A stretch of DNA of 64,000 nt from assembly GCA_000004985.1 (NCBI GenBank), contig GG738856.1; one strand, 5' to 3'. The stretch's first letter is position 1, and every line of letters starts with the position of its first letter. The DNA is from Naegleria gruberi. Lineage: Eukaryota. Positions 2,987 to 61,269 of the stretch are shown one piece after another. The notes under the pieces were generated by a model that was not told the origin of the DNA, did no database searches, and was given only the letters and a program-made list of their open reading frames with translations. The position numbers and the translations under genes were made by a program.

Positions 2987-3495
2987 ATGAAAAGTTTCTT
3001 CAAAGATTTTTTTGGTGGTTCTCGAAGTGGTGATGACAATCAAGAAACAACAGATTTAAAACAAGTATCCGAGTGGACAAAGGCTGATTTTTTGGAATAT
3101 ATTCATTCAAAGGAATTGGGAGATATTATTTTGGAGTGTAGGTTTAAATTCAAATTTTAATTAATCAATAATCGGAATGGATTAAAGCTGTGAAAGAGAG
3201 TGATTACTTTGATCAAATTACAGATTATACTAAATTAAACTTCTCGGATTTACTTGTAATTTTAACAAACAATGATGCCTCCACTGTTTTAAATTCTCTT
3301 GCTCACGATTATCCATCAATTTTCAAACCAATTAAAAAGTATGACAGTTATTTGCACACTAGTAATTCTGTTTCTGTGATTAGACACAGCGGAATGGATA
3401 AAGCAAATATGTTCGATAATTATGATGGACAGCACATTAACGATGATACTGCTCCAACACAACAAACCACCACCATCGAAGAAGAACAAAATTAA
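2987..3495 (+). CDS. small SAM-domain-like protein, 2 exons join(2987..3137,3188..3495)
   Basis: ATG at 2987 (MKSFFKDFFGG...WTKADFLEYIHSKELGDIILE). GTAGGT donor at 3138 and AG acceptor at 3186-87, phase-1 consistent. Continues into listed ORF 3190..3495. SAM-like W..DFLEYI...LGDIIL pattern. Confidence 0.4.
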
Positions 3496-8063: not shown

Positions 8064-8388
8064 TTTTTTATTTGATGACTTGAAAGATTTTTATCTTGAT
8101 TAAAATTATTATTTATTCTTTGTTATTTATTATTTAATTAAATATTATTTGTCAATAATAATTCATTATTTATGAGTATTATTAAGAGTTCTTGGTGCAA
8201 AAATATAATCATCAATATCCAAATCGGAAAATGTCTACAGTTAGTTTGTAGCCGTTTTGGCGGGTGAATTTAATGAAGTCACAAAATAGAAAAAAATTAA
8301 AGAACATTAAGCGTGACGAGGTAGCAACCGCAAAGGAAAAAGCCGATCTCATTCTCAACGCTTCTCTCTCAATAAATTCATTCTTCTC

Positions 8389-9602
8389 ATGTCTTTTGAT
8401 GCTAGTAGTACTACGAAAAGGAGAAGTTTATCTGTACAGGAAACAAGAAATAGGCTGAGGAATACTCAGCTGAAGAAAGGAGAATTACCTGTATCTCATT
8501 CAATTCCCTCTCGGTTTGAAACAAAATTAAACTTGAATTATTCGGAGAGAAAAGGGTTCGGAACAAGCACAACACGTTTTCAAGTATTTGTGGTAGGTTG
8601 TTGAGTTGGATGTTTTTTGATTTAATTTCATGTTTGCAATAGAATGATACACTAGGACCAAATGCAACATCTTATAATATAAAACGAGAAATTAGAGAAG
8701 AAAAACCATCAGATTCAAAGAAAGGATACGGAAATTTAGCATCTCAAACAAAGAGATTTTTTGATCAACCTCGAGTTGCATTTATTACTCCAGGACCAGG
8801 TTCAGCAGAACCAAAATCATTTGTTGAGGATCGCCTTATTAAAACACCAAGTAGTAGAAAAGGAACTAGGTCATTTGTAGAACCAGTGTCCAAATCATTG
8901 AAAACACCAACATCAACAACTATGGTTGGTCCAGGTAGCTATGAAGTTGAATCACCAAGGAGAGCTCAATCAGCTAAATCATCAGTATTTGCTTCAAAAA
9001 CTGAAAGATTTGAAGCATTTAAGGGTCTATCTTCTCCAGCCGCTGTAAAAAATAGATTCGAGGATATGTTTGACCATAAGTATGAAAGAGAGCATTGTGA
9101 AGATATGCTCTACTCAAGGAAAGAAAAAAGAAATCTGTCACAATCAGTATTTAGATCTGCAACTTTCAGAGATTTCGATATTAATCCAAAATCAATGTAT
9201 GAGGAGGTCGATATTCGAGATATTAGTAAGCCAATCACTCCAAGTACTATTGAAAGAAAATCTGCTGTGGAAGATATGCAAAAAGATGGACGATCTTACA
9301 TTTTCAAGAACCACAATATGGATAGATTTGGTAACTTTGTTGGGAATACAAGGAAAAAACCAACAAAAACGCCTGCAAGTCCCCCAAGTTATTACCCTAG
9401 TTTTGATAGATTTGGTGGTAATATGGCAGAGTTGGAGAAGAAGAAACATATTAGTTCAAGCTTTTTCGTTTCGAACACTAAGAGAGATATGGATGTTATT
9501 CCAACAAATGTACCTTATCCAGGCAAATATGATACTTCACAACTATTTGCTACCGGCAATCAAAAGTCGTTTAATATGAATAAAAGTGGTATATTTCTGT
9601 AA
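8389..9602 (+). CDS. STPG (sperm-tail PG-rich repeat) family protein, 2 exons join(8389..8592,8643..9602)
   Basis: Repeated P-G-P-G-S-x-E / GPGSYEV / GPNATSYNI motifs are typical of STPG repeats. GTAGGT donor at 8593 and CAATAG acceptor at 8642, phase 0. Confidence 0.45.
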
Positions 9603-19430: not shown

Positions 19431-19523
19431 AATTCTCAAATATTTGAAGTATTCCAATAAAATTCGTGTTTTCTTTACAAAATATTCTAAATACCATTTT
19501 GCCGCCTTCCTGTTTTCTCTTGA

Positions 19524-20274
19524 TTGAAAAAAATGAGTCAACAAAGAGTTAAAGACGAAAAGCCTTCCACAACAAGTGTGAGAGCAAATTTTGTTCGGGT
19601 TTCCGATTTGCAGAAAAATGGAGGCTCTGGAATTGATTATAAGAATTTATTTGGTCACAAGAAGACTGCATCCTCTTCTTCATCATCTTCCGTAAAAGCC
19701 TCTTCTTCATCAATTGAAAAAAAGAAGCCTTCCCGATCATCAACAAGTAGTACAACAACATCAAAAACAGAAAAGAAAAAAGCACCCGTTAAAAGAAAAT
19801 ATAAATCTAGAAATTCTGAACCTGTCAAAAAGGTTGAAAAAGGTGACAAACTCAAATGGATAACAAGAAAAGGAAAGAAATATGTATCTTATAATGGAAA
19901 GAAATATAGTGGAAAAAAAGGTATAGTTAAATTGTTATACATTCTCATTAAATCATTAAGCTTTTCAAATTTACAAAGAGTGGAAGGAAGTAAATGGAGA
20001 AGCATCAGATGAATCAGACAATGAGCAATCAGATGAAGAATATGTTCCGCCAAAGAAAAAGACTAAAAAGGAACCAAAAGAAAAGAAAGTTGAAGAAACT
20101 AAACCAAAACTCAAATTAAAAAAGAAAGAAATTGACTCTCAAGCAATTACCATTGATAAATTCTTTAAAAAAGAGGCTAAAGTGGAAACAATTGAAATTG
20201 AATCGGAAGACGAAATTGAATCATTCAGTACTGGAGATGAATTTGAGGATGATGTTGTGGAAATCATTGACTAA
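19524..20274 (+). CDS. lysine/serine-rich then acidic low-complexity protein (hypothetical, nuclear-like), 2 exons join(19524..19920,19979..20274)
   Basis: ORF 19524.. followed by GTATAG donor at 19921 and AG acceptor at 19977-78, phase-1 consistent. Acidic tail to stop at 20272-74. Confidence 0.4.
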
Positions 20275-20285
20275 TTTATTATTGA

Positions 20286-23453: not shown

Positions 23454-23779
23454 TTTTTATGGTGTTTAAAATCGTTTACTTTTTTACAATCCAACTTGCT
23501 CCAGTCATTTTATCAATATTAAGTTTGTTAACAATAAGAAATATTAAATACTTTTCATTCTCTGTTAATACCAAGTAAATACTATTCTCTTGCTATCCAA
23601 TATCTCATGTTGTATTCAACAAATAATTGGTGGTCGAGTTTGGATGTTATGACCGCTACTTTGGTTTCTTCCTGGCTCTTGTTGAATCCCAACAAACAAC
23701 CGTTAAAAAATATTGAGAGTCAAAAGTTGTCGACTCGAGCGCGAACAACACGCAAGAAAAACACAGGGAAAAAATAGCA

Positions 23780-27256: not shown

Positions 27257-27560
27257 ATTATCAGATTCATCTCTACATATTGTGTGTGGTATTTATTTTG
27301 TACATATTTACCAAACGCTTCTTCACTAGGAGTATGGGGACAAGTTAAAATTTTGAATCATTTCCTATGAGTGACATTCTTCATTTACACTTCGAATTCC
27401 CATTTTTTCAAAAATAATAACATTATTATCCTCCTATAATATTATTAATTCTGATCCGATCACTAATCAATGATAATTTACTGAATATTTATTCTTCGAT
27501 TTAATGATCATTTATTGTGTCTGAAGTTATTCTCCCTTCACGAAGAATGTTGTGTGAAAA

Positions 27561-27612
27561 CTCTCATCAAGCATTATTTTTTGATGAGAGTTTTAAAAAT
27601 GCGCTTAGCGCA
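27561..27612. promoter_or_regulatory. two perfect palindromes upstream of eS24: CTCTCATCAA-n10-TTGATGAGAG (27561..27590) and TGCGCTTAGCGCA (27600..27612)
   Basis: Direct reading. Located 77-128 bp upstream of the RPS24 ATG. Confidence 0.4.
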
Positions 27613-29723: not shown

Positions 29724-31400
29724 TTAAACTTTGTTTTTTTTATTGTAGAGGAAAAGCTGGGAAGAGAAAAAGCCGCATCGTTGTAGAATGTCGTTAGGAG
29801 TTTCGCCATTGGTATTCTTTAGATTCATTTCAGTGTAATTAGAGTACATCAAAAAGGTCATGCATTCAATGGCACTTTCCTTTTCTGGAGTGATTTCGTT
29901 GTTTGTTTTAAATTCCATTAGAGATTCCATTCTGCGAGCTGCTTTATGGACTGGCGTTTCCTGCAGAGGAGTCGAATCTTTGGCATTGTAAATCTGCTTT
30001 AGTTGATCAGTGTTAGGATACATTTCTTGGAGTTGATTTGAAAGCAGTTCTAGAACTGGAAAATGACCTCCTTCGCAAGCAAAGTGGAGAATATTGTACT
30101 TTCTCTTATCTTTCTTCTCTATTAATTGATTGTAATAGTTTCTGTCCATCAGAAGAGAACAAACAGACAGCAATTCCTTGTTACCATTCAAAGCTGCTTG
30201 GTGGAAAATATTGATTCCTTCAGGGCATTCGGATTCGTTCTTGATCCATTTCTTAATGCTACCTCCACACATCAACTCTACCTCTTTCTGAATCAGAATA
30301 CAGTAGCACAAGCTTCTCTTCATTCTATTTGTTATTTCTGGTGGGAAGTCCATGTCCTCTGATGTTTTCTTACCAGAGGAGTTGTCGTCTGACTTTCTCT
30401 TCTTTGATTTTGTGCATGTTGCTTCTTCTTTAGAATCTGCACCATGTATTGATTGACCAATTTGAATTTGAGTGTTGGGTGAGTGTGGGGTAGGTAAGTT
30501 ATTGTGCCCATTGATTAATCCCTCTGAATTACAACTCTCTCTGTAATTATAGATGGAACTAATTAGTGGCCTTCTTCCATTCTCGTCTTTAGCCTGAATT
30601 TTGGCACCTCGTTTAATAAGCCAATTCAATCCTTTAGAATCTGACTTTTTAGCTGCAATGTGCATACAGGTTTCTGAACTTGTTTTCTTCGAATTAATAA
30701 CTTCGTTACCAAAAATTTCAATCAACTTGTCCATCACCTCAAATCTTCTTAATCTGTATGCTACGTGGAAGAATGTATTACCATAAACATCTTTGGCCTC
30801 TCTTTCAAGGCGTGAAAATACAAAATTGGTGTTTAAGAACAATAACATACAGTCCATCGAATTATTAGCGATGGCAACATGAAGTGGAGTTGCTCCACTC
30901 TTTTGTTCTCTAAGATTCACATCGAGTACTATGTCAGCACCAACACTGGAGAACGTTGTCAACAACGATAGCAGAATATTTACATGATTGCCTGCCATGC
31001 ACCAGTGAATTGCTGCTCTCTTGGTTGTTCTTTCAAGAGCATTGATATTATATGTTTTGATAAACTCTTCCTTCTTCATTTGAGCTCTAGCTTGAATCAT
31101 TTCTTCCAATAACTGATTGACTAAATATTCATCTCCAACTCTGCATGCCTCAACTATTTCCTGAATCCAATTAGAAGAGAAAGATGGACTCGAAGGTGAT
31201 GTTGGTGACGAAGGAGGATAGAATAATTGACTTTGACTTGTGCTAGCATAGTAAAAATCAATAGCTGCACCATCATCACTACTCACATCAGAAGAAGTGC
31301 TCAATTGGTCATTAAATTGATGTTGCTCGGAGGAACTATATCCAACATGAAGAAACTTTGGATTAATATCAATAGGACTACTTCTCAATATTTGTGGCAT
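29724..31400 (-). CDS. ankyrin-repeat protein (558 aa)
   Basis: Multiple ANK repeats (TPLHVAIANNSMDCMLLFL, TCMHIAAKKSDSKGLNWLIKRGAKI, YNILHFACEGGHFPVLELL). Confidence 0.7.
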   Translation of the reverse strand: MPQILRSSPIDINPKFLHVGYSSSEQHQFNDQLSTSSDVSSDDGAAIDFYYASTSQSQLFYPPSSPTSPSSPSFSSNWIQEIVEACRVGDEYLVNQLLEEMIQARAQMKKEEFIKTYNINALERTTKRAAIHWCMAGNHVNILLSLLTTFSSVGADIVLDVNLREQKSGATPLHVAIANNSMDCMLLFLNTNFVFSRLEREAKDVYGNTFFHVAYRLRRFEVMDKLIEIFGNEVINSKKTSSETCMHIAAKKSDSKGLNWLIKRGAKIQAKDENGRRPLISSIYNYRESCNSEGLINGHNNLPTPHSPNTQIQIGQSIHGADSKEEATCTKSKKRKSDDNSSGKKTSEDMDFPPEITNRMKRSLCYCILIQKEVELMCGGSIKKWIKNESECPEGINIFHQAALNGNKELLSVCSLLMDRNYYNQLIEKKDKRKYNILHFACEGGHFPVLELLSNQLQEMYPNTDQLKQIYNAKDSTPLQETPVHKAARRMESLMEFKTNNEITPEKESAIECMTFLMYSNYTEMNLKNTNGETPNDILQRCGFFSSQLFLYNKKNKV

Positions 31401-32568
31401 TCTTTAATATATATTTACAGGAAATCAAAATAGTAGTAGTATTATTTACAATAATCTCTCTGAATCAAAATCACACACGAGAGCAAGAAAACCTAATAAT
31501 TGTCGTATAAGGTGCAAGTTGTGCCAGATGGTATCTATTGTGCCTCTGTCTTTTTTTAGATTTTTGAATACAAAACACAGGCTTCGAATCAGCACGACGG
31601 TAGTCTAGAGCAATTTCTAGGTTGTTTTTTCTTTTTTGAAAAATTCAGAGACAACACCACCTGATAACCATCCGAATTGCATCAACAACAGTAACTTGTT
31701 GGTAGAGGTGATGCACATTCCTTTTGGTATTTAACGAGACAATTATGAATTGGGAGAATCCAATCAATCGAAAAGACAAAATTGAAGCACTTTGCTTGAT
31801 TGGTCTTGATTGCATCACACAATTGATCCAGTTTTTACGAATTGAGATAGTTTAATGCTGAGAAGGTTTCTAATGTCAAGTTCAGAAAACATCTCAACAA
31901 ATTCAAATACAAAGATGGTTTCTAAAAGACTCTTTTAGTTTAACACGAACACTTTGGCATAAAGGCCATCATTGGTAAAGATATATTGTTTTGAACGTTA
32001 TGAAAAAACTGTTTGAATTACAGTTTGAAATGAGGTGAGAGTTCAAACGAAACTGATCGAATCGTATACAAAATACTTTGAACGGCTTTTTGGTACTAAA
32101 ATGATACACCAATACTACACAGAGATATTTGTTGCATTTGAGATGTTCGTTTCAATATTGAGTGTTCTTTATCCAATTTTCCATTCTTCTGAAACCTATT
32201 CTAATAACTCATTGTAAAGTGAGTTGATATTATTGAGAGTTAAAATGTTAACAACTACTAGAATATTAGTTAGTCTGCATTTAGGCATTTTATACATTTC
32301 TTCACAACCATCGTTATTTACATTTTTGTGTTATGGTGTTATCTAGGTGCAATGGTTAATTATCTTTTGGAGAATATTAAGAATGAAAATGCAATTTAAT
32401 AATCAATTCTTACCAAGTAAGTAGAATGTTACTCTTGAATGGAAGCACCTTTGACGACTCCACTGTAAAGTTAACTCTTTGGATTTACAGTTTTTTAACA
32501 GGAGGATAAAGAGACTGTGAAAATAAGAAACCTTTATGTCTGAAAAATTTCAAATCAGGTGGTGTTGG

Positions 32569-32608
32569 TTTAGCGCCTAAACTTTCTTCGCGCCAAAAGT
32601 TTCCCGCC
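32569..32608. promoter_or_regulatory. cluster of E2F-like motifs (TTTAGCGCC, TTCGCGCCAAAA, TTTCCCGCC) 50-90 bp upstream of kinesin-14 ATG
   Basis: Matches to TTTSSCGC in an otherwise AT-rich leader. GCGC is rare elsewhere in the window. Confidence 0.4.
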
Positions 32609-32657
32609 TTCACAAAAATTAATCAGTTAACATTTTTAAAACAACCACACAAAAAAA

Positions 32658-34157
32658 ATGTCTCAACTTCCATCATCTGCCCAGAGCAACATTTCCATCG
32701 ATTTTAACGATCCTCCAATCGGCCTTGAACAATCATGGCTCGAAGAAAATAGAGACAGTCGTGAAGGACATACTCTTCTTAAATCATTAATTATTGATCA
32801 AATTAATCAAATTCCGGTTGCTAACTTTAATCTTGTTCTTCAACAGTGCAGAAATAGAACAAGTGATGGAGTGAGTTGCCATCTTTCCCAACAAATTGAA
32901 TTATACAAACAAGAGATTGACAAGTTGATTCAAGAAAATCAACGTGTTAGTAAACAATTACACAAGGAGATGAAACTCCGTCAACAATACTTTAACGAAT
33001 TGCAATTGTTGAAAGGTGCCATCAGAATTTTTGTTAGAGTCAGACCATTGCTGACACATGAAATTCAACAAGGAGACTTTACAGTACTCAGATTTTCAAA
33101 GACAAATCCACAAACTCTTTTCCTTCCAAAAGTTTTACAAGAAACACAACCAGAAGATAAGATTACCAAACAAAGCCATAGACAATTCCAATTTGACAAG
33201 GTATTAGGACCTAATGTTCATCAAAAGATGTAAGTGATTATTGATTTTAATTTATATTAATATTTACATTTGAAATATAGGTTATATGACGAAGAAATTT
33301 CACCACTAACTAAATCAGTTCTTGATGGCTATAATGTTTCTATCTTTGCTTATGGTCAAACTGGTACTGGTAAAACTCACACAATGCAAGGAAATGGAGA
33401 TGAAATTGGTATTCAACAATATATTTTACAAGATTTATATAATCACAAGAATAAGGATAAGGATATGTATAATATGACAATTGCATTGAGTTGTATGGAA
33501 ATTTACAATGAAACTTGTATTGATTTACTCAGAAGTCAAGATAACAAATTAGAACTCAAGATGGATCCACAAAATAAGAAAATTATTGCTCAGGGATTAA
33601 GAGAAGTAGTTTGTAATGAATTACAGGAAGCTTTGCAATGTTTGATTTTCGCTCAAAAGAATAGAGCTGTTTCATCTACAAGTCAAAATCATAGATCCTC
33701 AAGATCTCACCTTATTGTGCAAATTTCTGTTTGCAAAATGTTCCTTAAACACCCAGAAGCTAACAGTGAAGAAGAACAACAAAATATTACGCCAACCTGT
33801 ACAACATCTCAAATGTACTTGATTGACTTGGCTGGTAGCGAGAAGATCAACACCAGTGGTGCAAGCAATCCAATTACTGACAGTGAAACAAAACATATTA
33901 ACAAATCTTTATCTGCTCTTGGCAATGTTATGGAAGGATTAAGAAACAGAAGTGCTAAACCTGGACAAAATGCTCACATTCCTTACAGGGATACAAAATT
34001 GACATACTTTATGAGTAATGTTTTTAGAGATAAGCACTCGATATGCTGTATGATTCCTCACGTTGCTCCAAGCTCTTTATGTTTCAATGAATCTTTGAGA
34101 ACACTTCAATTTGCTGAAAGAATGAGTGGAATAGCTCTTAACAATGTAAATCAATAA
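32658..34157 (+). CDS. kinesin-14 (C-terminal motor, KAR3/Ncd/KIFC-like), 2 exons join(32658..33229,33281..34157)
   Basis: Neck GAIRIFVRVRPLL, P-loop GQTGTGKTHTM, switch II LIDLAGSE and HIPYRDTKLT. GTAAGT donor at 33230 and ATATAG acceptor at 33280, phase 2. Confidence 0.85.
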
Positions 34158-35500: not shown

Positions 35501-36574
35501 TTAATTGAGAGAAACTTGATAAACATCAAAGTGATGATTTAGCTTTGAATTCTCATGGACGCAGTATTCTTGATTTACCTTATTGATTAGTCCACCAAAA
35601 TTATTTCCACATTCATGTACAAAGTATATTCTTCTAATTCTAGAGTGTAAGAGAGCCATTGCACACATACAGCAAGGTTCATGTGAAATAAATAAATCCA
35701 ATCCTTTGCAGAGGTAGGGAATTTCTGTACTCGGTGTGTTAGGTGGTAGCTTCTCAATTGTCTCTATACAGTATTGGGCAATGACATCCACACCAACAAC
35801 AGCACAGTGCCTCAGTGAGCATTTGAATTTTCCCAAATTTGAAAGAGTACCTTCTGTTTCTGAATAGTAAGGAGAGAAAAATGAATTTTTAGATTCGTCT
35901 AGGAATAATTCATCATGAATACTAGATTTAACAATTGTCTTGGTTTGTGGATTGAAAAATAACCCAGAAACTCGCTTACTCTTTTCAAATGAATCAATTA
36001 CTAGTTTTGTACATGTTTCTACAGATTTCTCATCGTGACTATTTACATTTAGTTCTGCTTTTGGATCTAATTTTGCCAATTGAAGTTCAGTTTCATATAA
36101 ATTAACAGTTTTAAGAGGCCAATATTGAGTATTCCATTCCTTCCACTGATATTTCAATTTAGGTCCATATTTTGGAATTTTAAAAAGTTTCAAAATTTTT
36201 TCTGCTTGTTGATGATCCGAACATTCTAAAATTGTTTTAAAAACATGATTTTCTTTTGTAAGTAATTCATCATCCGAGCTTTGAAAAACATTAGAAATCC
36301 ACCTCTGTAAATTTGTATTTTCATCAGTATCATCATCAATATTCAACAATGGATACAAAACACAATAAGTATCACTTCCAATAGTTTTAATTCTTTTAAT
36401 AAAATCTATATCACGAGCCTCCAATGGAAAATTCTTATTCAAATATTGAATCAAGCCTGAAGTTTTTGATTTATTTTCCACTCTTATCCCGATAATATTA
36501 ATCAACTCCAAATCGGTAATCTTCGGCTTGGTGTAGATGTTTTTAATTGATAACTGTGATGATGAATTTTCCAT
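35501..36574 (-). CDS. CMP/dCMP-deaminase zinc-binding domain protein, tRNA adenosine deaminase subunit TAD3/ADAT3-like
   Basis: C-terminal HCAVV...PCCMC (H-x-V...PC-x-x-C, Glu-less variant typical of ADAT3) with a long N-terminal domain. True ATG is at 36574 (MENSSSQ). The ORF-track start at 36610 uses an alternative TTG. Confidence 0.5.
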   Translation of the reverse strand: MENSSSQLSIKNIYTKPKITDLELINIIGIRVENKSKTSGLIQYLNKNFPLEARDIDFIKRIKTIGSDTYCVLYPLLNIDDDTDENTNLQRWISNVFQSSDDELLTKENHVFKTILECSDHQQAEKILKLFKIPKYGPKLKYQWKEWNTQYWPLKTVNLYETELQLAKLDPKAELNVNSHDEKSVETCTKLVIDSFEKSKRVSGLFFNPQTKTIVKSSIHDELFLDESKNSFFSPYYSETEGTLSNLGKFKCSLRHCAVVGVDVIAQYCIETIEKLPPNTPSTEIPYLCKGLDLFISHEPCCMCAMALLHSRIRRIYFVHECGNNFGGLINKVNQEYCVHENSKLNHHFDVYQVSLN

Positions 36575-36582
36575 ATTTTTTT

Positions 36583-36599
36583 TTTTTTTTAAATGCAAT
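36583..36599. repeat. target-site duplication, left copy (TTTTTTTTAAATGCAAT)
   Basis: Identical 17-mer recurs at 38013..38029, immediately flanking the LINE fragment. Confidence 0.6.
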
Positions 36600-38012
36600 G
36601 GGCAAGACAATTAGTAGTTTTATCCATCTAGCAAGAGGAAATTCAATTTCCAATCCTCGCCTACAAACAATTGACTCAACAATAAGGGGTAACCTAAAAA
36701 GATCAATGAAGATCGATGCAAAGGTAAAACCATCCACAATGTATGCACAATTCGAAAGAAAAGGACTAGAAATTCCAAACCTCGAATACATAGCCAACTC
36801 AATCCTTTGCAATAACTTAATCAACAAATTCCACTCAAGTAACCCACTTGTCAGAGAAGCAGTACAGTACGGAATTAATAACTGTAACACGAACAAAACA
36901 AAACTACACAACATATTTGAAAAATTCCACTACATCCTAAAACAACACAAACTTACCACAACAATATGTAACACCAATCATCAACTTCTGGAAAAGGAAA
37001 AAGATGAACAATACTCCTACTCAGAATTCACAATATGGACTGATGGATCCAAATCAGAAAACAAAGTAGGATTCAGTGTAATCATTCAGAACAACGAATT
37101 TACAAAAGGATACAAATACAAGCTCCACTCATACCACTCAAACAACATGGCTGAATTATCAGCAATTACAACAGCACTACACATCATACCACCAAACAGC
37201 AATGCAAAGGTACTCACTGACAGTGAAATAGCAGTCAAAATAATTTACAACACAAATTACAAAGGTCAATTTAAGCAAATCAAAGATGAAATTACCAACC
37301 TCATCAGCACTAAAAAACTTCAAGCATCCATCGAATGGACAAAAGCTCATACAGGAATAACAGATGGAAATAACTACGCTGATAAGAAAGCCAAACAAGC
37401 CTCAAGAATAGGACATCGAATTGCACCCCAACATCTACTAACTCAAGGGCAACTAATTATCACCAATTCGAAAAAAGTTTGGAAAAGTAGAATCAAAGGA
37501 GTACTTAGTGAAAAGCTCTACAATCAAGGAACATCCGAACTCATCAACAGAACAAATCTCAATTACCTCAAAGAACATACCACCCCAACTCACAAATACT
37601 CAATCTGGAGGCTCATGATAAATGGACACTTAAGAAGCCTCATAGTAGACAACCCACAATGCCCAACATGTAACAAAAACCTTGACACAGAACACCTCTT
37701 CATAGAATGCCCAGAAATGAATTCAGCTAGAAACTGGATGATTGAAGAAATCAAAAAAAATACCAATCTCGAACCAGTACTAAGCACAGAGAGGACAGAA
37801 ATATTAACACCAAACTCATTCCAACTGAATATCTTTGGTATTCTGACAGAACCTATTCAAGGTATTATCAAAGAACAATGGCCCAAGATACAAGGAGGCC
37901 TCTCACTTTTTGGAGGAAGAGTACAAAAACAATACAACAAAATCTTAAAAATTCAATAAGACGTTCCAAATGGACGAACCCGTCGGGTTCATTCGATTAA
38001 TAAACGTTTAAA
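36600..38012 (+). mobile_element. 5'-truncated non-LTR (LINE-like) retrotransposon copy: ORF2 C-terminal part (RNase H + Cys-His motif) plus 3' UTR
   Basis: Uninterrupted 453-codon ORF ending at 37959 with RNase H motifs TIWTDGS, AELSAI, HTGITDGNNYADKKAK and C-terminal CPTCNKNLDTEHLFIECPE. 3' UTR contains hairpin GAACCCG-T-CGGGTTC and AATAAA. Flanked by identical 17-bp direct repeats. Confidence 0.65.
37976..37990 (+). other. perfect 7-bp stem hairpin in LINE 3' UTR (GAACCCG T CGGGTTC)
   Basis: Direct reading of the sequence. Lies 17 nt after the ORF stop and before AATAAA. Confidence 0.6.
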
Positions 38013-38350: not shown

Positions 38351-39016
38351 ATGCAACAATGTTTCTTTCACTCACTTATTCAAAAAATGTCTCAATATAA
38401 CCAATCTTTTACCACTCAACCTGGTTATCCTCAACCAGTTAATGTTCAACCATTGTCTTATAACCCTGCCATTCAACAATTTTCTCAACCACAATATGGT
38501 CAACCAATGAGCCCATCTCTGCAACCAAGTCCATCAACTCCAAATTCTTCTTTCACAAAGCAATCTGGAGGTTCTTTCCACATGCAACAAGATCCAGCTC
38601 TAATTCAATCAAACACACCAAGTCAACCAGTTCTCGAGTGTAAGAATTTGTTACCTTTTATTGTTAATGATAAGCTTGTAAAGAATACTTTTTGGGCAAC
38701 TGGTGGTAATATCCTAATCAAGATATTCATATTTGTTGTCAATAAGTTTATTCTCATGGGTTTAGGTGAAGCTCTGATGGTCAATTACATTACCAGAAGA
38801 GAAGTTAAAAACATGAGAATTGGTAACAGAATGTTGAGCTACAAATCAAGAGGAAACTTCAAGATGGCCCTCCTATGTGTTGTTAATTGGATATTGAACA
38901 TATTCTCATGTGGTTTATTCTACATTCTTGGTTATAGTCATATCATGTACCTTTCTCAACTCGATGCCAGAATTCACTGGGGAAAACCAGCTAAAATTTC
39001 CAAGAAGAGTCAATGA
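38351..39016 (+). CDS. hypothetical Pro/Gln/Tyr-rich N-terminus + hydrophobic segments (membrane protein), possibly 5' half of one gene with the next ORF
   Basis: ORF with PGYPQP..QPQYGQP region then TM-like segments and a ...NIFSCGLFYILGY motif. Stop overlaps the next ORF start (ATGA). Confidence 0.35.
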   Translation: MQQCFFHSLIQKMSQYNQSFTTQPGYPQPVNVQPLSYNPAIQQFSQPQYGQPMSPSLQPSPSTPNSSFTKQSGGSFHMQQDPALIQSNTPSQPVLECKNLLPFIVNDKLVKNTFWATGGNILIKIFIFVVNKFILMGLGEALMVNYITRREVKNMRIGNRMLSYKSRGNFKMALLCVVNWILNIFSCGLFYILGYSHIMYLSQLDARIHWGKPAKISKKSQ

Positions 39017-39648
39017 AAGAGGCAATTTGTTGGGAACCAATTGGTAATGGAATGGGTGAATTCAAGATATTTAGTGTATACTTGGGTGTTGGATTTGAAA
39101 TAATGTTCATCATTTTGTATTCACTCAATTTGGTTTCGTTTGGTTTACTTTCTCCACTATTGTACAAGATTTACTTCCCAGCCTACTTTGAGAAGGTTCA
39201 ATTGGGAAAGGGAAGATTTGCAGTCATTCATCCAAAGATGATTTCCTCAATTAATAAGCATGCCAAGAAGAGATCCAAATTGAAGAAGGAAAAAATTGAA
39301 CAACCAACAGAAGTTTATCCATGTGATTATCCAGTTTTAGGTTTTCCACCTCAACCTTCTCATGAAACATACAAACTTAAATTGAAATTTGTTCCAACTT
39401 TTTGTGAGTTGATCAAATTCTTTGTAACGATCAATGTTCTCAGCTTTGTGTCATGTGGATTATTTGTCAAGTGTTGCTTGGCAAATTATGCCAGAAATTA
39501 CATGAATAGAAATATTCATATTGAATTGGAATCAGTTCCATTAGAAGAGCTGCTCAATAATAATAATATCACAGTTTCAAATAATGAGATTGCATTGCAA
39601 CAAGTGACTGTAGTTGAAACTGTTATCATTCAACCTAATCAACAATAA
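39013..39648 (+). CDS. hypothetical membrane protein (second ORF of the pair; repeats the SCGLF-containing motif)
   Basis: Begins in the +1 frame at the ATGA overlap. Contains ...SFVSCGLFVKCCLANY similar to the upstream ORF. Confidence 0.35.
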   Translation: MKEAICWEPIGNGMGEFKIFSVYLGVGFEIMFIILYSLNLVSFGLLSPLLYKIYFPAYFEKVQLGKGRFAVIHPKMISSINKHAKKRSKLKKEKIEQPTEVYPCDYPVLGFPPQPSHETYKLKLKFVPTFCELIKFFVTINVLSFVSCGLFVKCCLANYARNYMNRNIHIELESVPLEELLNNNNITVSNNEIALQQVTVVETVIIQPNQQ

Positions 39649-39693
39649 ATATTACTTCAATTCTTATGAAATGAATTTATTCGATATGTTAAT

Positions 39694-39708
39694 TTTGGCG
39701 CCATTTTG
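39694..39708. promoter_or_regulatory. palindromic E2F-like site TTTTGGCGCCATTTT about 30 bp upstream of ORC2 ATG
   Basis: TTTGGCGC core on both strands. Confidence 0.4.
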
Positions 39709-39736
39709 AAATGTTGAACTTTTTAAAATAAAAAAA

Positions 39737-41086
39737 ATGAGCGCCAATAACACACTCACTATCAGCAATTTAATTTTTGTTGGTGATGAGGATGAATCTT
39801 TACAGGATAGATTTAACAAGATTGATCCGAGTATTCTGACTAAATATTCACGAGATTGTACCTTTAAAGAATATAGGCTTGTGGATTCGGATGATATTAC
39901 ATTGGATTCGGAGAAGGAAGATAAATTCTTCTCCACTCCTTTTGAACAATACAATTTACAGAAATTAATTAAAAAGACTAAAACATCGGCCAGTGATAAG
40001 GTTGTAATTTCGTTGGAAGATGTTGATTGTACAATTCCTTCTCATGATGACAAGTATTTTGAACCTGTTTCTTTTAAAACTAAAAGTGATAATTTAGTAT
40101 TGGAACGAGTGAATGAATGGATGCACTGTTTGAGATGTGATAATAATTTATTATTTTATGGATTAGGATCAAAGATTAATCCACTGAATCAATTAATGTA
40201 TTGCATGAAGGAAAGTGATGTGAATAGTTTCTTTGCAATTGTTTGTGGATATAATCCTGAAATTACAATCGGAATAATGTTGGATGACATTTTAAAGACA
40301 CATCTGAAAGAGAAGAATACTAAGAATTTATCATATGTGGAGAAAGTGGACACAATTATAAGAATAATGAATCAACGTAATGAATTGGCCAAACCTTTAC
40401 CTGATGATGAATTTGGTGATTTTGCAGAATTTATGAAAGATGAAGAGCCATCTACAAAACATGCCAAACAACATTTGTACATTTGCATTCATAATATTGA
40501 TGGACCAGGCCTTCGTTCTAAATCCACTCAACATTTACTCTCTGTTCTATCAAGTAATAGATATATTCACTTGATTTGTAGTGTAGATAATCAATTATCA
40601 AATTTATTATGGGAACCCTCAATTGAAGACAAGTTTGGCTTTATGAGATTCAATATTACCAACTTTTGTACATATTTTGCTGAATCTGAATATTACTCAT
40701 TACAAGATTTGTACAATGAATCATCTGATGGAAAGAAGAGTAGTGAAGAGAAATCACTTGGACCAGTTGAAATTGTTGCCAATATTTTAAAGTCAGCAAA
40801 CAAGAAACACAGACAAATTTACATGATTATTTGCAACAAATTTATTGAAAATGAAAAGTACAATGAATCGGAAGAAGGATCTAGCCAACCTAAACCTAGT
40901 GGCAGCACTCATCAAGAAATCAAATCTTCTATGGGTGTTTATTCAACAGATGATGCCTTGCTGAGAGATGGTTTGTCATATCTGGAAAATCAAATTAAGG
41001 TTATCAAGAAGAAGCAAAATACCTTTATTCCGACCTTGAAGCGAAATCAATGTGAAAAACTCTTGGTCATATTAAACAATTCATAA
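39737..41086 (+). CDS. ORC2: origin recognition complex subunit 2
   Basis: LLFYGLGSK...IHNIDGPGLRSKSTQHLLSVLSSNRYIHLICSVDNQLSNLLWE matches the ORC2 C-terminal domain (VHNIDGPMLR...IASIDH.NAPLLWD). Confidence 0.8.
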   Translation: MSANNTLTISNLIFVGDEDESLQDRFNKIDPSILTKYSRDCTFKEYRLVDSDDITLDSEKEDKFFSTPFEQYNLQKLIKKTKTSASDKVVISLEDVDCTIPSHDDKYFEPVSFKTKSDNLVLERVNEWMHCLRCDNNLLFYGLGSKINPLNQLMYCMKESDVNSFFAIVCGYNPEITIGIMLDDILKTHLKEKNTKNLSYVEKVDTIIRIMNQRNELAKPLPDDEFGDFAEFMKDEEPSTKHAKQHLYICIHNIDGPGLRSKSTQHLLSVLSSNRYIHLICSVDNQLSNLLWEPSIEDKFGFMRFNITNFCTYFAESEYYSLQDLYNESSDGKKSSEEKSLGPVEIVANILKSANKKHRQIYMIICNKFIENEKYNESEEGSSQPKPSGSTHQEIKSSMGVYSTDDALLRDGLSYLENQIKVIKKKQNTFIPTLKRNQCEKLLVILNNS

Positions 41087-52356: not shown

Positions 52357-52820
52357 ACCGTGTATGGATAGTCACAAAATTGAATCGCACCTGCCTGATT
52401 TAATTTAACAACGAAATGAGAAATGGATGGCACAATTAATTGAGATGATTCTTAATTGGTGAACTCACATATTATATTGTGAATTCATTTGTTTTCATGT
52501 TATTTCGTTATAATTACAGAAAGTAATGGGGTTGTACTTTTGGTTGATGATGAGAAAATTTTAAATAAGGTTTACTAATTAAAAGAATCCAATAGGATTC
52601 AACAAAATAATGAAAAGTAAACAATAAGCTTCAAAATTATCATCTCTTTCAATACATACACTCAAACACTTTAAAGTCGTCGACTACTCTGTCCACACTT
52701 TCCCTAGTGATATCACTCTTCATTCAAGAAAACCTTAGTTTCTCAGTTCAGTTTATTCATATCTGAAACCTTTAGGCGGGTAAAAGGAAAATCTTCACTT
52801 CAAAACTCTGAAAAAACAAA

Positions 52821-53951: not shown

Positions 53952-54010
53952 GATTTTTGTACAACAGAATAGGCAAACAGACTATCAGTCAATTGGAATA
54001 ATACCACCTG

Positions 54011-55516
54011 TTGGTAGTCCTAAAACTTGAAATTAACAAGTCAATCAAGAAATTAAACATATTTCAATCGGATTTGAAGATACTAAAAATTCTAAGTGAA
54101 ATGACAAGATTTAATTCCTCACTTGAACGTTTAATAAACATTATCAAGCCTAATTATTATTTGTTTACAAAAAAAATGATCAATAAGAAATCTCATCATA
54201 AAAAGCCTTTTGATCATCGTAATCATGATCATGATAATACAATAGATCATGTTCCGATGATGGTAGGTGAAAAATCACTACTTGAAATAGGTTCCGATTG
54301 TATTTTGGAAATATTTAAATATCATGTTGAAACATCTGATGATATTTTAGTATTATCACATACATGTTCAGATTTTAAACAATTAATTAATACAAATACG
54401 GAAATTTGGACTTGTAAAATTAAATCAATATTTAAAAGAAAGGCTTTACAATTTCAAAATTTCAAAGTTAATAGAGTTGATTTGTTAAATCAATTTTTAT
54501 TAAATAATTTAACAGATAATTATTATTTACTTCCAGAAAAGGAAGTTTATCAATTTTCTAAAAAAAATGGTGGAGAATTTATTAATATGATTACAAATAC
54601 AAATGATTTAATCAAGTATTTTAAATATGAAAAACAAGTTGAATCTGATTTTAATAATAGAAATTTCATTTATTCCAAATTAGGAAATCTATTTGAATGG
54701 ATTCAAAGAATTTTTATAATCTTATTTTGTATTTATATTTCATTCCAAGAATATTATGTGGTCATGAAAACAGCATTAGATTTAAATATATATAGTTGGG
54801 TTAAATATTCTGATTTAATTATTTATACTTCTCTAATTTTGGAATCTTTAATTATTTTTATAGATGTTTTTATTTTGTGCTATTTTAGTGAATTTATTTT
54901 AAATATTAAAAAATCCATTAAAAGAGCCTATTCAAAAATTACATACACGCGCAGATATAAAATTATAGTACTCATTCTAATTCTATCAATTGCATCATTA
55001 TTTATTAGAATTATGTTTTATTTTAATAATGATAGTGATGGTTCTCTTTTACAAGAACGTAGAAAATATTATAATGAATTGGATTTGGAAAATGCAAATA
55101 TTTTACAAAGATTTCAATTAGGTGTATTTAATGGTGAAGAAATATTTAGATCTTTAATTAACAATTTTAATTTATTACTTTCAATTCCATTGGCTTTTGG
55201 ATATTATGAAGCTTCTAAATTTTTAACGGAATTTAATACTTTATTTGTTTTTGGAGTGGGAATTTATTTACAATTATTTACTTTGATATTTTTTACTAAT
55301 ATTTTAACTCCTATTTTAGCATTTGTTATTGCTATATTAGGAGGATATTATTATAAGTATGATATTTCTAATTGGAAAAAAATATTATCAATTGCAACAT
55401 CACATTTATTTGCTTATTTGGGATTTTCATCATTTTATATATTTTTACCACATGTAATTTATTTTACTATTTGTGAGAATACTGGTCATGGAAGTTCAGA
55501 GGATATAAATTTTTAA
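54011..55516 (+). CDS. F-box-like domain fused to multi-pass transmembrane region
   Basis: LLEIGSDCILEIFKYHVETSDDILVLSHTCSDFKQLINTNTEIWTCKI, then at least 6 hydrophobic helices in the C-terminal 280 aa. Confidence 0.45.
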   Translation: MVVLKLEINKSIKKLNIFQSDLKILKILSEMTRFNSSLERLINIIKPNYYLFTKKMINKKSHHKKPFDHRNHDHDNTIDHVPMMVGEKSLLEIGSDCILEIFKYHVETSDDILVLSHTCSDFKQLINTNTEIWTCKIKSIFKRKALQFQNFKVNRVDLLNQFLLNNLTDNYYLLPEKEVYQFSKKNGGEFINMITNTNDLIKYFKYEKQVESDFNNRNFIYSKLGNLFEWIQRIFIILFCIYISFQEYYVVMKTALDLNIYSWVKYSDLIIYTSLILESLIIFIDVFILCYFSEFILNIKKSIKRAYSKITYTRRYKIIVLILILSIASLFIRIMFYFNNDSDGSLLQERRKYYNELDLENANILQRFQLGVFNGEEIFRSLINNFNLLLSIPLAFGYYEASKFLTEFNTLFVFGVGIYLQLFTLIFFTNILTPILAFVIAILGGYYYKYDISNWKKILSIATSHLFAYLGFSSFYIFLPHVIYFTICENTGHGSSEDINF

Positions 55517-56354
55517 TTTTATCGTTTCTGGATAGAAGAACTTTGATTGTGGTTGTAATAAGGCAAGTAGTCGTTTGGTAGAACTATTCGAATAAATTGA
55601 ATGGTTGATGAGTGAGGACTGTTACAAAACATGTTACTATCACAAGGATCCTTGACAGTATGTAATATTTCTCACTAACACATCTGATGCTTCAATAATT
55701 GTGAGCCACTTTTCATCCCAAATATTCTATTAAATTCATTATCATCCCAACAATTTGTTTCAAAAAAACTGTAGATCAAATGAGTAAAACCCATTTCATT
55801 GTATTTTGATATGGAGACTTTACAATGAAATCTATTCAAGAGACTCTTTTATTTCAGATATGATACTACTTACAAGTTGGAGATACGCTCAACTTGTATT
55901 GAAATAATTAGATTTATTAGCAATAATACCTTCAATTATTAGAAAGATTGACTTTTTCCTTTTTAGTATTGACACAATTCCGCTTGTCATTTTACAATGT
56001 GCACCAATCAGAGTGTTACATTTTTCAGTACAAAATATATTTAATATTATTATACAATCAGATACTTCACTCTGCTGAACCTAACTTTCGTTTCCTTTCA
56101 CACTGAATCGAACTAATGTTTAAATTCTAACATAAAAATCACCAATGTCACTACTATTTCAGCTTCAGTGGAAGATTCTACTTCAGTTGAAAATTGACGT
56201 CTTTATCGGCAATGGTTTTTTGAAAAGGGAAACTTTTTTCAAAGCCTAAAAAAAATCGCTTGACATTAGACTGAAACAATTTCAGTGATTTACAAGCAAT
56301 CTACCTCAACACCACTCTAATAACAGTGAACCAAACTAATTACTTTGAGAGTAA

Positions 56355-58449
56355 ATGTATTATAATAATATGATGGCAACTACAACATCAACTGAAGAAC
56401 ATGATATATTTCAATATCATTCTAATTTTCAAATTCTATCCAATGGAAGTAAATCAACAACAACAACTTCACCTAACAAACAACAACAACCTTTAAATTC
56501 TACCGATACTACTATTACTACTACTAACGATACATTATCATCTCTATCAACTGATAATATACCAATGGCTATTTCACCCTCCTTGTTATCGGTAGAAGAT
56601 TCTACAACAGTCTACAGTACAAGTTGTAATGATTCATCACTCATGATGGATCAACAATCTTCATCATCACTCGTTTCTTCATCCATTATAAACTCAACAA
56701 TATCTAATAATAATAATATTAATAATAATATTAATAACAATAACAATAATAACAATAATAATAATATTAACGGTTCAATTCCACTAATAACACTCAACCA
56801 AGAACAAAATGGTTCAGATCATGATGAATTAATTGATGTACATAGTTCATCATCCCCTAATCAATCACCTTCACATTCAACTGGAACACCGACAGATGAA
56901 GATTCGTTTACCTTCTCCAATTTAAATTGTTCTAATAGAAGTATTAATATTGCAATAACACCAACAACAAGTTTAAATGATTTAACTGTGGAATCATCAA
57001 GTGATTCATTATTATTATCAGATAATTATTCATTACAATATCCTCAATACTATTCTAATCAGACAGATCCTAAAAATTTACTTTTCCAATATTGTGTTGA
57101 GGGAAAGGAAGATTTATTTATTGAATTGTTAAAAGAACAAATTGAATCACCAAATCAAACATTGGGAAATTCATCACTTGATGCTAATAGAGTTTTAACA
57201 AGTCAATTCATTTATCATGATTTTGATAAATGTACTCTATTTCATTTATCAAGTAAATTTAATAGAGTCAATTCAATGGAGAAAATGTTGGAATATTTAC
57301 CTTCAATTTTAACATTTAAAGATTCAAAACAAGCTAATTGTTTATTTTATGCAGTTTCTAATAATTCAAAAGAAGCTTGTGCTCTAGTTTGTAATTATTA
57401 TTCAATGATAAATGGTTTATCAGATAAGAAATTTACAAATGAATTAGACATGTATGGTAATTGTTGTTTATATTTGGCAATGCAAAAATCTTTTTATGAA
57501 TTGGCTGATTTACTTTTATTATTTGGTGCTAATATTGATATTAGTTTTAAAACAGGTGAAACAATGTTACATAGAGCTATAACAGAGAGAAGATTAGATA
57601 TTGTTGAATATTTATCAAAGAAGGGTGCAAATTTATTGAAACAAAATCAAAATAATGTAAGTAGCTTTTTTTTTACCATTACTGGAAAGGTATTTAATCT
57701 TTTTGAACTATGTGTTGATTTTAAAATGTCAATTGATAATTGAACTATTTGTTGATAATTGATTCAATTGATTTATATCTTCTATAATATAATAGGAAAA
57801 TCCATTATTTAATGTATTTGTTCATCAGAAAAAGAAGGAAACCAATGTAAATACAAGTCAAGATAGTATCAATAGTACTGGTAGTAATGGTGGTAATAAC
57901 AAGACACCAACAAGTTTAGAATCACCAACTCATAGTGCACCACTCTTTTCATCAAATAATTCAAATTTCTGTAGAAATGGAGCTCTATTTTTACAAAATC
58001 TATTGAAAAGTAATGCATTTTCAAGTGAAATTATAATGAAAGGATTAAAACAAAAGAATTCTCATGGACGTACAATGTTTCAAGAATGTATTGTAAAAGG
58101 AGATTTACCAAGTTTTAAAGTACTAGTTGCCTATTTAACAACAAGAGAAAATTCAGAACAAACTCTTTCATGGTTTGTGAATGATGTTGAAAATCAAAAA
58201 CAAAGAACTTCACTTCATTTATCAGTTGCTTACAAACAATTTCACATGTGTAAGATTCTAGTTGATGCCATTCCAGGTATTGCTAAATTAGATACACTTG
58301 ATTCTGATGGTAAAACTGCAATGGATTTGGCAAGAGAAACAAATCAGGAAAATACCATTCAATTTTTCAATGAAATTCAACAATTACAGAAAGAAAAGAA
58401 AAGTTCTGGATTTGGTTTTAAAAAATTATTTAGAAGACTGAAAAAGTAA
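56355..58449 (+). CDS. ankyrin-repeat protein with Asn-rich N-terminus, 2 exons join(56355..57656,57796..58449)
   Basis: GTAAGT donor at 57657 and AATAG acceptor at 57795, phase 0. ANK repeats in both exons (TMLHRAITERRLDIVEYLSKKGANL, TSLHLSVAYKQFHMCKILV). Confidence 0.6.
56695..56790 (+). repeat. coding (AAT)n / (AAC)n microsatellite giving poly-Asn
   Basis: Inside the ankyrin gene's N-terminal exon. Similar tracts occur at 3768..3810, 59462..59590 and 62985..63075. Confidence 0.7.
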
Positions 58450-58611
58450 ATTGTACATATTTTGTAAACTTACTATTATTATTGAAATAATAATAATAAT
58501 GGATCTCATACAACAACAACAACAACAACATTATCAAATAATTTATCATCATCAACATCATCAACATCAACAACAATAACATTACAAAGTGCTCAACAAT
58601 TTTTCAAAAAT

Positions 58612-60390
58612 ATGAAAAAGGGTAAAATTGATATTGTAGAACAAATGTTAAAAGAGAATATAAATTTTCTAATGATACGAGATGTAGATGGAAGTACAGC
58701 ATTAATTAAAGCAGCATCTAAAAATTTAGTAAATTTTGTAGATTTATTTTGTAAATATAGTAGAGATAACAAACTTGGATTTAGTTGTTTAGATTTAACT
58801 AATAAGGATAGATATACAGCAATTAATATAGCAGTTAAAAAACAAAATATTCAAGTTGTAAAATTATTATTATCATATAATGCAGATATAACAAATACAC
58901 CAAATAAGGATGGTAATTTACCTATACATAGTGCGAGTAGACGTGGATTTACAGATGTTATTTCAATTTTAGTAAATTATGATATAAAACAATTAAATAT
59001 AATGAATCCATTAAATAATAGAACACCTATATTTATGGCAGCACAACATGGTCATTTAAAAACTGTTGAATGGTTTTTAGATCAAGATGGAATTGATTTA
59101 TCTATAAAAAGTTGTGATTACAAAAGACCAATACATTCAGCTGCATCACATGATAATTTAGATGTTTTAAAATTATTATTAGAAAAAGGACGAGAAAATA
59201 TTAATGTTATTACAACAAATGAAACTGATAAGGATAAAAGATATACTCCAATGCATTATTGTTGTAAAAAAGGTGCTTTAAAAACTGCTAAATATTTATT
59301 AGAAAGAGGTTCTCTATTAGGAATATTCATTTTAAATGCTCAACATGGTTATTTTGGTAAAAAAACACCTCTCTATTTAGCTGTTCATGGTAAAAAGGAT
59401 GAAATTGTTGAATTATTTTTAACTTATTATAAAATTATTAATGAAATGATTAATGAAATTGAAAAATCAGAAGAATTAATTAATATTAATATCAATACTA
59501 GTAATATCAATACTAGTAATAATAATACTAGTAATAATATCAATAATAATGATAGTAATAATAATAATAATGAATCTAAAAATTCAAATGAAAATGAATC
59601 AAGAATATTTAAAAAAATTGAAAAGTATAACAAATTTTCATTAGATTTAAGTTTAATTTATAAAACGTTAAATGAATATTTAAAAAAAGAAGATATTCAA
59701 GCAATAATATCAGATCCATCAAGTGAAAATTCAGGAGATTCAGATAATGATAATGCTGATGATTTCCAAAGAAACGAGGAAAAGAAATTATCAAGTGATT
59801 ATAAAAGAGTTACAAGATCAATTAAAAATGTTATACAAATTGCAACTTCAGAAGAGAATCAAGAATTAGTACATTTATCATTTTCAATTGTTCATTTTGA
59901 TATTGTAAAAGTGTATTTAGAATATTTCCCAGAATTATTGAATTGTAAATCAACTTCAAATGGAAATACATTAATTAATAAGGCAGCACATATTGGACAT
60001 TTAGAAATAATGAAATATTTAGTTTCAAAAGGAAGTAATATTTCAATACCAAATGATGTTGGTAATAGACCTATTCATAGAGCTGCGTATTGTGGACATT
60101 CTGAAATTGTTAAATTTCTCGTTGAGGATTGTGGAGAAAAGGTTGATGTATTTCAACATTCAACTCCAAAAACTAAACGGTTAGAAACATCTCTACATTT
60201 AGCTGCTAGAAAAGGTTGGATTGAATGTGTTAAAATTTTACTTTTAAATGGTTCTGATATTACACTTGCTACTAAGAGTGATAATCCAAATGGAAGAAGA
60301 GATGCACTTCAATTATCTAAGAGATATAATCAATTCCTTGTTTTTGATTTTCTTGAAAAGGTTTTCCAGAGAGTTACTCGATCTTATTAA
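58612..60390 (+). CDS. ankyrin-repeat protein (at least 10 ANK repeats) with Asn-rich insert
   Basis: Repeats such as NRPIHRAAYCGHSEIVKFLV and TSLHLAARKGWIECVKILLLNGSDI. Confidence 0.7.
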   Translation: MKKGKIDIVEQMLKENINFLMIRDVDGSTALIKAASKNLVNFVDLFCKYSRDNKLGFSCLDLTNKDRYTAINIAVKKQNIQVVKLLLSYNADITNTPNKDGNLPIHSASRRGFTDVISILVNYDIKQLNIMNPLNNRTPIFMAAQHGHLKTVEWFLDQDGIDLSIKSCDYKRPIHSAASHDNLDVLKLLLEKGRENINVITTNETDKDKRYTPMHYCCKKGALKTAKYLLERGSLLGIFILNAQHGYFGKKTPLYLAVHGKKDEIVELFLTYYKIINEMINEIEKSEELINININTSNINTSNNNTSNNINNNDSNNNNNESKNSNENESRIFKKIEKYNKFSLDLSLIYKTLNEYLKKEDIQAIISDPSSENSGDSDNDNADDFQRNEEKKLSSDYKRVTRSIKNVIQIATSEENQELVHLSFSIVHFDIVKVYLEYFPELLNCKSTSNGNTLINKAAHIGHLEIMKYLVSKGSNISIPNDVGNRPIHRAAYCGHSEIVKFLVEDCGEKVDVFQHSTPKTKRLETSLHLAARKGWIECVKILLLNGSDITLATKSDNPNGRRDALQLSKRYNQFLVFDFLEKVFQRVTRSY

Positions 60391-60634
60391 TATTGTCATC
60401 TTTCATTAATATTTGTTGAGATAATATTAGTGATATATTAGTGAATGATATATTGAATGATATTATTTTTAAAACTAAATTAACGTAATATTTTAACTGA
60501 AATCAAATGAAATAATACAAATAATAATACTATTTGTAATGGTATTATTAAAAAATTCAATAATTTGATTAATGATGTAAAAAAAGAAATGATATATTAT
60601 TAATAATAACCATTATAATTGTACAAATAAAATT

Positions 60635-61129
60635 TTAATTCTTAATCTTGTTCATTGCTTGATATTTTTGAATATCAAACCAAACCTTAAATAAATCACG
60701 TGTACCTAAAGCAAAAACAGAATTTGCTCTCAAATATAAATATGGTGATCCACTCAATTGAACAAGACATGGATAGAATGTATTTTCAAATATTGGTTTA
60801 CAAGGATCATTTTCAGGTGATTCTGACATGGCTTCCGATGGTGATTTTCCGTCTTTCTTTTCATTTAAACATTCTTTATATTTTCCTAATTGTGGTCCAC
60901 AAGGAGTATGTGGGGCATGAAGAAAACAATAAGAACACAAATACTTGTCTTCTTTCTGTATTAAATCTTCAGCAGTAACTAAAGGATATATTCTTCCGTT
61001 AACATCAAATTTATTCTTTAACACTTCTGGTCTAAATTGTGCAAGTGTCTTCAAGGCTTGTTGTCTTCTTTCCTCTTCCAATTTCCTTTCTTCCTCAGCA
61101 GCTGATAATGATTTGTTTGATATTGGCAT
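60635..61129 (-). CDS. hypothetical small Cys-containing protein (164 aa)
   Basis: ORF with coiled-coil-like N-terminus and a CSYCFLHAPHTPC...C...C segment. No family recognised. Confidence 0.35.
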   Translation of the reverse strand: MPISNKSLSAAEEERKLEEERRQQALKTLAQFRPEVLKNKFDVNGRIYPLVTAEDLIQKEDKYLCSYCFLHAPHTPCGPQLGKYKECLNEKKDGKSPSEAMSESPENDPCKPIFENTFYPCLVQLSGSPYLYLRANSVFALGTRDLFKVWFDIQKYQAMNKIKN

Positions 61130-61269
61130 TTTTTTAAATGTTATTTATTTATAAAAAAGCAATCAATTTCTATTGAATAGAAAACAAAGCCTTTTTTTTC
61201 ATCGTCTGTCTGTTACTATTGGATGATCATTATTTTGAGGAGCAGTAGTAGAAGATAATAATAATAACA

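Follow-up and report, generated by a model that had tools for sequence, protein, structure and literature searches.

We report a candidate E2F promoter element in a stretch of 64 kb of Naegleria gruberi nuclear DNA (the window): the sequence TTTGGCGCC(A) at 39694-39703, in the spacer ahead of the gene for origin recognition complex subunit 2 (ORC2), is fairly likely to be a functional site in the ORC2 promoter for the E2F/DP of N. gruberi, or for an E2F7/8-like relative. We favor this reading because of the sequence match, the statistical excess of the motif, its promoter-proximal position, the conservation of the trans-acting factors, and a partial phylogenetic conservation of the site itself.

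The ORC2 gene and the box in its upstream spacer

The gene downstream of the box had been named as ORC2 in a sequence-only reading of the window, and protein comparisons confirmed this. The 449-aa open reading frame (ORF) at 39737-41086 on the + strand matches PF04084, the ORC2 RecA-like domain, at an E value of 4.6e-39 and is 100% identical to NAEGRDRAFT_88227, which carries the UniRef name "Origin recognition complex subunit 2." The public model of NAEGRDRAFT_88227 comprises 296 aa and begins at Met154 of the ORF found here; since the N-terminal 153 residues of the longer ORF align with the orthologs from N. lovaniensis, N. fowleri, and the metagenome contig L003, the ATG at 39737 is the likely start of ORC2. 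The public N. gruberi model therefore appears to be truncated at its 5' end, and what would pass for its upstream region (39737-40198 of the window) appears to be coding; such a truncated model would conceal the promoter box from motif scans based on annotation. With the start at 39737, the 88-bp intergenic spacer at 39649-39736, which lies between the stop codon (39646-39648) that ends the upstream ORF and the ORC2 ATG, must hold the ORC2 core promoter. A BLAST comparison of the spacer with the window and all loci revealed no repeat, and its sole GC-containing match was the box in L003; when the window was scanned for Rfam families and tRNA genes, none were found, so that no RNA gene explains the box.

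Direct reading of the window placed the 15-mer TTTTGGCGCCATTTT (reverse complement, AAAATGGCGCCAAAA) at 39693-39707, so the sequence first noted is present, but its position had been given one base too far downstream, as 39694-39708. On the + strand, TTTGGCGC at 39694-39701 fits the E2F consensus TTTSSCGC at every position, its T-run facing away from ORC2, which bears out the description of the site as E2F-like. The 8-bp sequence TGGCGCCA at 39696-39703 is palindromic (half-length, 4), as is no other part of the 15-mer, and within it lies the symmetric core GGCGCC (39697-39702), which fits [C/G]GCGC[C/G]. The perfect two-sided palindrome of the TTTGGCGC/GCGCCAAA type that had been proposed is not what the sequence contains: the consensus is found on the + strand only, the reverse strand (AAAATGGCGCC) giving no fit, and a search at the box for the 12-bp two-sided form with a 5' T-run and a 3' A-run (TTTSGCGCSAAA) was negative. 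On the 3' side the flank reads ATTTT instead of AAA, and hence there is no GCGCCAAA; this departure from the A-run of the optimal 12-mer counts against an E2F/DP site. The two-sided 12-bp form is typical of optimal E2F sites; a member of the class need not show it. E2F2/3 SELEX motifs may be of the AAAATGGCGCCATTTT type, in which case they would fit the ORC2 box in its right half; a literature check for AAAATGGCGCCATTTT as an E2F2/3 motif returned PCR primers only.

The ORC2 ATG follows the 15-mer after 29 bp, in agreement with the distance of about 30 bp first given; the center of the core lies ~38 bp upstream from the ATG, and the TTTSSCGC match spans 36-43 bp before it, close upstream from a replication gene. 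A further sequence one mismatch away from TTTSSCGC, ATTGGCGC on the - strand (GCGCCAAT on the + strand), is found at 39741-39748 within ORC2 codons 2-4. Two other identities of the box were considered and rejected: a hairpin or terminator, as the 8-bp palindrome has no loop, and an NFI-type site (TTGGC-N5-GCCAA), as the spacing is wrong by the rule generally held for such sites.

Frequency and location of E2F-type motifs in the window

Both forms of the motif are in excess in the window. TGGCGCCA was found twice, against 0.08 expected matches, and TTTSSCGC five times, against 0.84; none of 100 shuffles reached 2 or 5, respectively. The two occurrences of TGGCGCCA, and likewise of GGCGCC, are at 39696 in the ORC2 spacer and at 12982, inside an ORF for a class II tRNA synthetase of the D/K/N type. 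The scarcity of GCGC that had been remarked upon holds in absolute terms, with 15 sites in 64 kb, but does not amount to depletion, since 10.35 sites were expected and 6 of 100 shuffles reached 15.

Promoter zones were defined as the stretches of up to 100 bp upstream from the first ATG of ORFs of 120 aa or more. They account for 6.6% of the window and contain four of the five TTTSSCGC matches, or three of the four independent loci (binomial p, 9e-5 counting hits and 1e-3 counting loci). The genes with such promoter-proximal matches are ORC2, a gene for a K/S-rich protein, and a kinesin-14 gene. The fifth exact match, TTTGGCGC at 1522, falls in coding sequence; together with the coding copy of TGGCGCCA, it indicates that some occurrences are not regulatory. 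These figures describe a sample of one 64-kb window and six loci, with the canonical targets MCM2-7, PCNA, RNR, and CDC6 lying outside it.

Kinesin-14 promoters and other E2F-like boxes

The kinesin-14-type gene occupies 32658-34157 on the + strand, with exons at 32658-33229 and 33281-34157 and an intron of the form GTAAGT...TATAG. Its E2F-like cluster, at 32570-32608 and thus 50-88 bp before the ATG at 32658, reads TTAGCGCC...TTCGCGCCAAAAgTTTCCCGCC and is made up of TTAGCGCC, TTCGCGCCAAAA (32590-32597; TTTGGCGC on the - strand), and TTTCCCGCC (32600-32608). Orthologs of the spliced protein were taken from N. lovaniensis, Willaertia magna, and the Naegleria-like contig L006, and in all four promoters E2F-type boxes are kept 45-90 bp before the ATG: TTCGCGCCAAAAgTTTCCCGCC in N. 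gruberi, TTTTTCGCGCC...TTCCCGC in N. lovaniensis, CCGCCAAAAaaTTCCCGC in L006, and TTCCCGCC...GCGCCAAAA in W. magna. In this clade, E2F-type boxes thus seem to be genuine elements of promoters; their retention, even though the W. magna protein is just 59% identical to that of N. gruberi, is good evidence that they function as such in Heterolobosea.

The three Naegleria kinesin-14 promoters also have in common the sequence C(A/T)GTTA(A/T), ~15-20 bp downstream of the E2F-like boxes (window, 32620-32632; L004, 2968-2982; L006, 2425-2436). We take this sequence to resemble a Myb site (CNGTTR), and it may point to a combined E2F-Myb module at a mitotic gene. The ~1.2 kb between an ankyrin gene and the kinesin-14 promoter (31400-32560) contains no ORF that reaches 120 aa and gave no Rfam match.

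At the K/S-rich protein gene, the TTTSSCGC match is part of TTTGCCGCC at 19498-19506 on the + strand, 35 bp before the ATG at 19533. This gene (19533-20275) has one apparent intron (~19921-19979) and encodes a low-complexity product with no Pfam match; the C-terminal AITIDKFF resembles, by eye only, a PCNA-interacting (PIP) box, and the protein may be linked to replication. Another box, TTTTGGCGGG at 8255-8264, is of the E2F4-type GGCGGG form and lies 9 bp before an ATG at 8273, which may start a gene of putative multi-exon structure ending in an ORF with SHIPPO (sperm-tail PG-rich) repeats (8886-9602); that ORF encodes a flagellar-type protein.

Weaker E2F-like sequences were noted before two further genes: GCGCGAA at 23739-23745 (TTCGCGC on the - strand), with its start 41 bp ahead of the ATG of a four-bromodomain gene, and TTTAGGCGGGTAAAA at 52772-52786, ~46 bp before the ATG of an F-box gene (52821). 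A GCGC-containing element distinct from E2F is present upstream from the gene for ribosomal protein S24e (ATG at 27689), where, within 27560-27612, an 11-bp inverted repeat (AACTCTCATCA...TGATGAGAGTT) comes ahead of the near-palindrome TGCGCTTAGCGCA. Toward the end of the window, at 54000-64000, the G+C content falls from ~32% to 17-27%, and ankyrin-repeat and F-box-like proteins are encoded.

E2F, DP, and RB proteins of N. gruberi and known E2F sites

Proteins that could act on such a site are present in the host. NgruE2F, NgruDP, NgruRB, and NgruDEL, an E2F7/8-like protein, are given by Medina et al. 2016 in their supplement (PMC4862756). According to Pfam, NgruE2F combines the E2F_TDP and CC-MB domains and NgruDP the E2F_TDP and DP domains. 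The DNA-binding domain of NgruE2F matches that of human E2F4, as crystallized in the E2F4-DP2-DNA complex (1CF7), at an E value of 7e-25, and the two proteins are identical over the 24-residue recognition region, including the RRIYD helix; the DNA-contact motif RRXYD thus takes the form RRIYD in NgruE2F and RRVYD (within RRRVYD) in NgruDP. The structural basis of E2F-DP recognition was established by Zheng et al. 1999, as cited in PMC3734150. On this basis, the N. gruberi E2F/DP presumably reads the same [C/G]GCGC[C/G] core.

The ORC2 box can be set against several known systems. ORC subunits had been called canonical E2F targets, and for ORC2 there is precedent in Arabidopsis, where putative E2F sites occur in the promoters of all prereplicative complex (pre-RC) genes except ORC5 and where ORC2 and CDT1a are reported to be regulated by E2F (PMC5452130). 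As in such animal and plant pre-RC promoters, a TTTSSCGC sequence lies near the start of an ORC gene in N. gruberi, and the host likewise has E2F, DP, and RB; the differences are that Naegleria is a heterolobosean amoeba (Discoba), that the promoter spans at most 88 bp, and that the box, a candidate site, is not found in all congeners. Compared with the human E2F1 HT-SELEX motif TTTGGCGCCAAA (PMC5449588), the N. gruberi box is identical at positions 1-10 of 12 (TTTGGCGCCA) and ends in TT instead of AA, which makes it one-sided. In Cryptosporidium parvum, TGGCGCCA is the E2F-like motif most overrepresented upstream from genes (Oberstaller et al. 2013, PMC3734150): there, too, the same palindromic octamer is found in the compact, AT-rich genome of a protist whose intergenic regions are very short, and its reading as an E2F/DP site was a computational inference. 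The C. parvum motif, however, precedes many gene classes, including ribosomal, glycolytic, and many other non-cell-cycle genes (PMC3734150), whereas in the N. gruberi window the exact consensus precedes three genes only. The presence of the motif alone is therefore no proof of G1/S control.

That breadth in Cryptosporidium would also suit the view that the ORC2 box is functional but serves a factor other than E2F/DP, such as another GC-box or palindrome binder or a general core-promoter element, and carries no G1/S information. The palindromic TGGCGCCA could accommodate any homodimer, and our literature search yielded no description of Naegleria promoters. We nevertheless consider such a factor unlikely: the N. 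gruberi E2F and DP retain the RRXYD recognition helices for exactly this core, the other boxes conserved among these amoebae, TTCCCGC and GCGCCAAAA, are E2F forms of the asymmetric kind rather than palindromes, and with an exact TTTSSCGC at only ~3 promoters in the window the motif is not a general core element.

Comparison of ORC2 promoters

The ORC2 locus of N. gruberi was compared with those of N. lovaniensis (L001), N. fowleri (L002), and a Naegleria-like metagenome contig (L003). At the protein level, ORC2 of L003 is 54% identical to that of N. gruberi and ~50% identical to those of N. lovaniensis and N. fowleri, which are 81.5% identical to each other. The 10-mer TTTGGCGCCA, which starts 43 bp before the ORC2 ATG in N. 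gruberi, recurs without change and in the same orientation in L003, at 1794-1803 and 37 bp before the likely ATG (1831); the L003 DNA flanking it is otherwise unalignable with the N. gruberi spacer. N. lovaniensis has a decayed version, TTTTTTCGCCAC, and N. fowleri has no counterpart within ~300 bp, even at one mismatch. This decay and absence count against an E2F/DP site at ORC2, and they leave the proposal of a conserved regulatory code shared with kinesin-14 standing in part: the kinesin-14 boxes are kept in four heterolobosean loci, but the ORC2 box is not kept throughout the genus. Additional relatives were sought with a profile search using the four ORC2 sequences, aimed at Willaertia and other heterolobosean ORC2 proteins, which returned the same four proteins only, and with two metagenome scans using ORC2 alignments, which returned no relatives.

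The comparison bears directly on whether the box might be a GC-rich octamer that arose in the ORC2 spacer by chance and has no function. Chance would allow for the shortness of the site, for the similar sequences that coding regions contain at 1522 and 12982, and for the degeneracy of the box in one congener and its absence from another. The low expectation for TGGCGCCA in the window and the strong promoter bias of the motif class argue against it, as does the identical 10-mer at about the same distance before the L003 ORC2 gene amid unalignable flanks: shuffles of L003 gave 0.20 TTTSSCGC matches per 6.3 kb, or ~0.003 per 100-bp promoter, and the exact 10-mer would be expected far less often. 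We therefore regard a chance origin as improbable.

The surroundings of the gene also differ between the loci. In L003 the upstream neighbor is a divergently transcribed, deaminase-like gene, different from the neighbor in N. gruberi, which indicates that the box goes together with ORC2 rather than with the neighbor. In N. gruberi two features lie between the deaminase-like gene and ORC2: an ORF at 36547-37959 that combines an RNase H domain with a reverse-transcriptase-like tail and has the appearance of a non-LTR retroelement truncated at its 5' end, and an ORF pair of unknown function at 38351-39648, overlapping at 39013-39016. Neither is present in the syntenic head-to-head deaminase/ORC2 layout of N. 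lovaniensis, N. fowleri, and L003, and the head-to-head spacer has shrunk to ~20 bp in N. lovaniensis and ~31 bp in N. fowleri. A second exact TTTGGCGC was seen in L003 at 3211-3218, 28 bp after the ORC2 stop codon.

Although the upstream ORF of N. gruberi (38351-39648) stops only 45 bp before the box, within the 88-bp spacer, a role of the box as a 3'-untranslated-region, polyadenylation, or termination signal of that ORF is very improbable, as the divergent neighbor in L003 has no 3' end there while the box keeps its distance to the ORC2 ATG, the AATAAA at 39644-39649 that overlaps the stop codon would by the usual spacing put cleavage before the box, and a loopless 8-bp palindrome cannot form a hairpin.

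For the E2F/DP site, the simplest reading of its distribution is ancestral presence followed by loss in the branch of N. fowleri and N. lovaniensis; the box could instead have been gained in the clade of N. gruberi and L003. If functional, the ORC2 box is dispensable in part of the genus.

Discussion

Our results make it probable that the ORC2 box represents an E2F promoter element of the ordinary type, from a lineage for which none seems to have been described. A literature search combining Naegleria and E2F gave no title or abstract on E2F sites in Naegleria promoters, a search on Naegleria promoters and transcription starts gave nothing relevant, and no Naegleria cell cycle transcriptome was found. 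Because the trans-acting factors are conserved, such an element is to be expected rather than surprising. In the mechanism that we envisage, the winged-helix domains of E2F and DP would use their RRXYD helices to contact the symmetric GGCGCC core, the 5' T-run would orient the E2F/DP dimer, and repression by the RB family, with CDK-dependent release, would tie ORC2 transcription to cell cycle entry, as it does in animals and plants. Binding by E2F/DP, the position of the transcription start, and a cell cycle periodicity of ORC2 mRNA are the parts of this scheme that we infer.

A broader hypothesis, which we put forward tentatively and consider somewhat doubtful at present, is that the Heterolobosea (Discoba) use a recognizable E2F-based cis-regulatory code. 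In the window this code would comprise ORC2, kinesin-14, the K/S-rich gene with its PIP-like sequence, and possibly the SHIPPO-repeat gene, and at kinesin-14 it would be combined with the conserved Myb-like C(A/T)GTTA box. Such a code, if real, would offer an initial way into the control of transcription in Naegleria, its unexplained differentiation program included.

E2F, DP, and RB are already known across eukaryotes, including Naegleria, and evidence at the level of the cis-acting sites is thin outside animals, plants, and a few protists. If the present reading is true, a conserved E2F box at ORC2 and kinesin-14 would extend the logic of E2F targets to Discoba and would provide an entry point for studies of promoters and the cell cycle in Naegleria, the genus of the pathogen N. 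fowleri.
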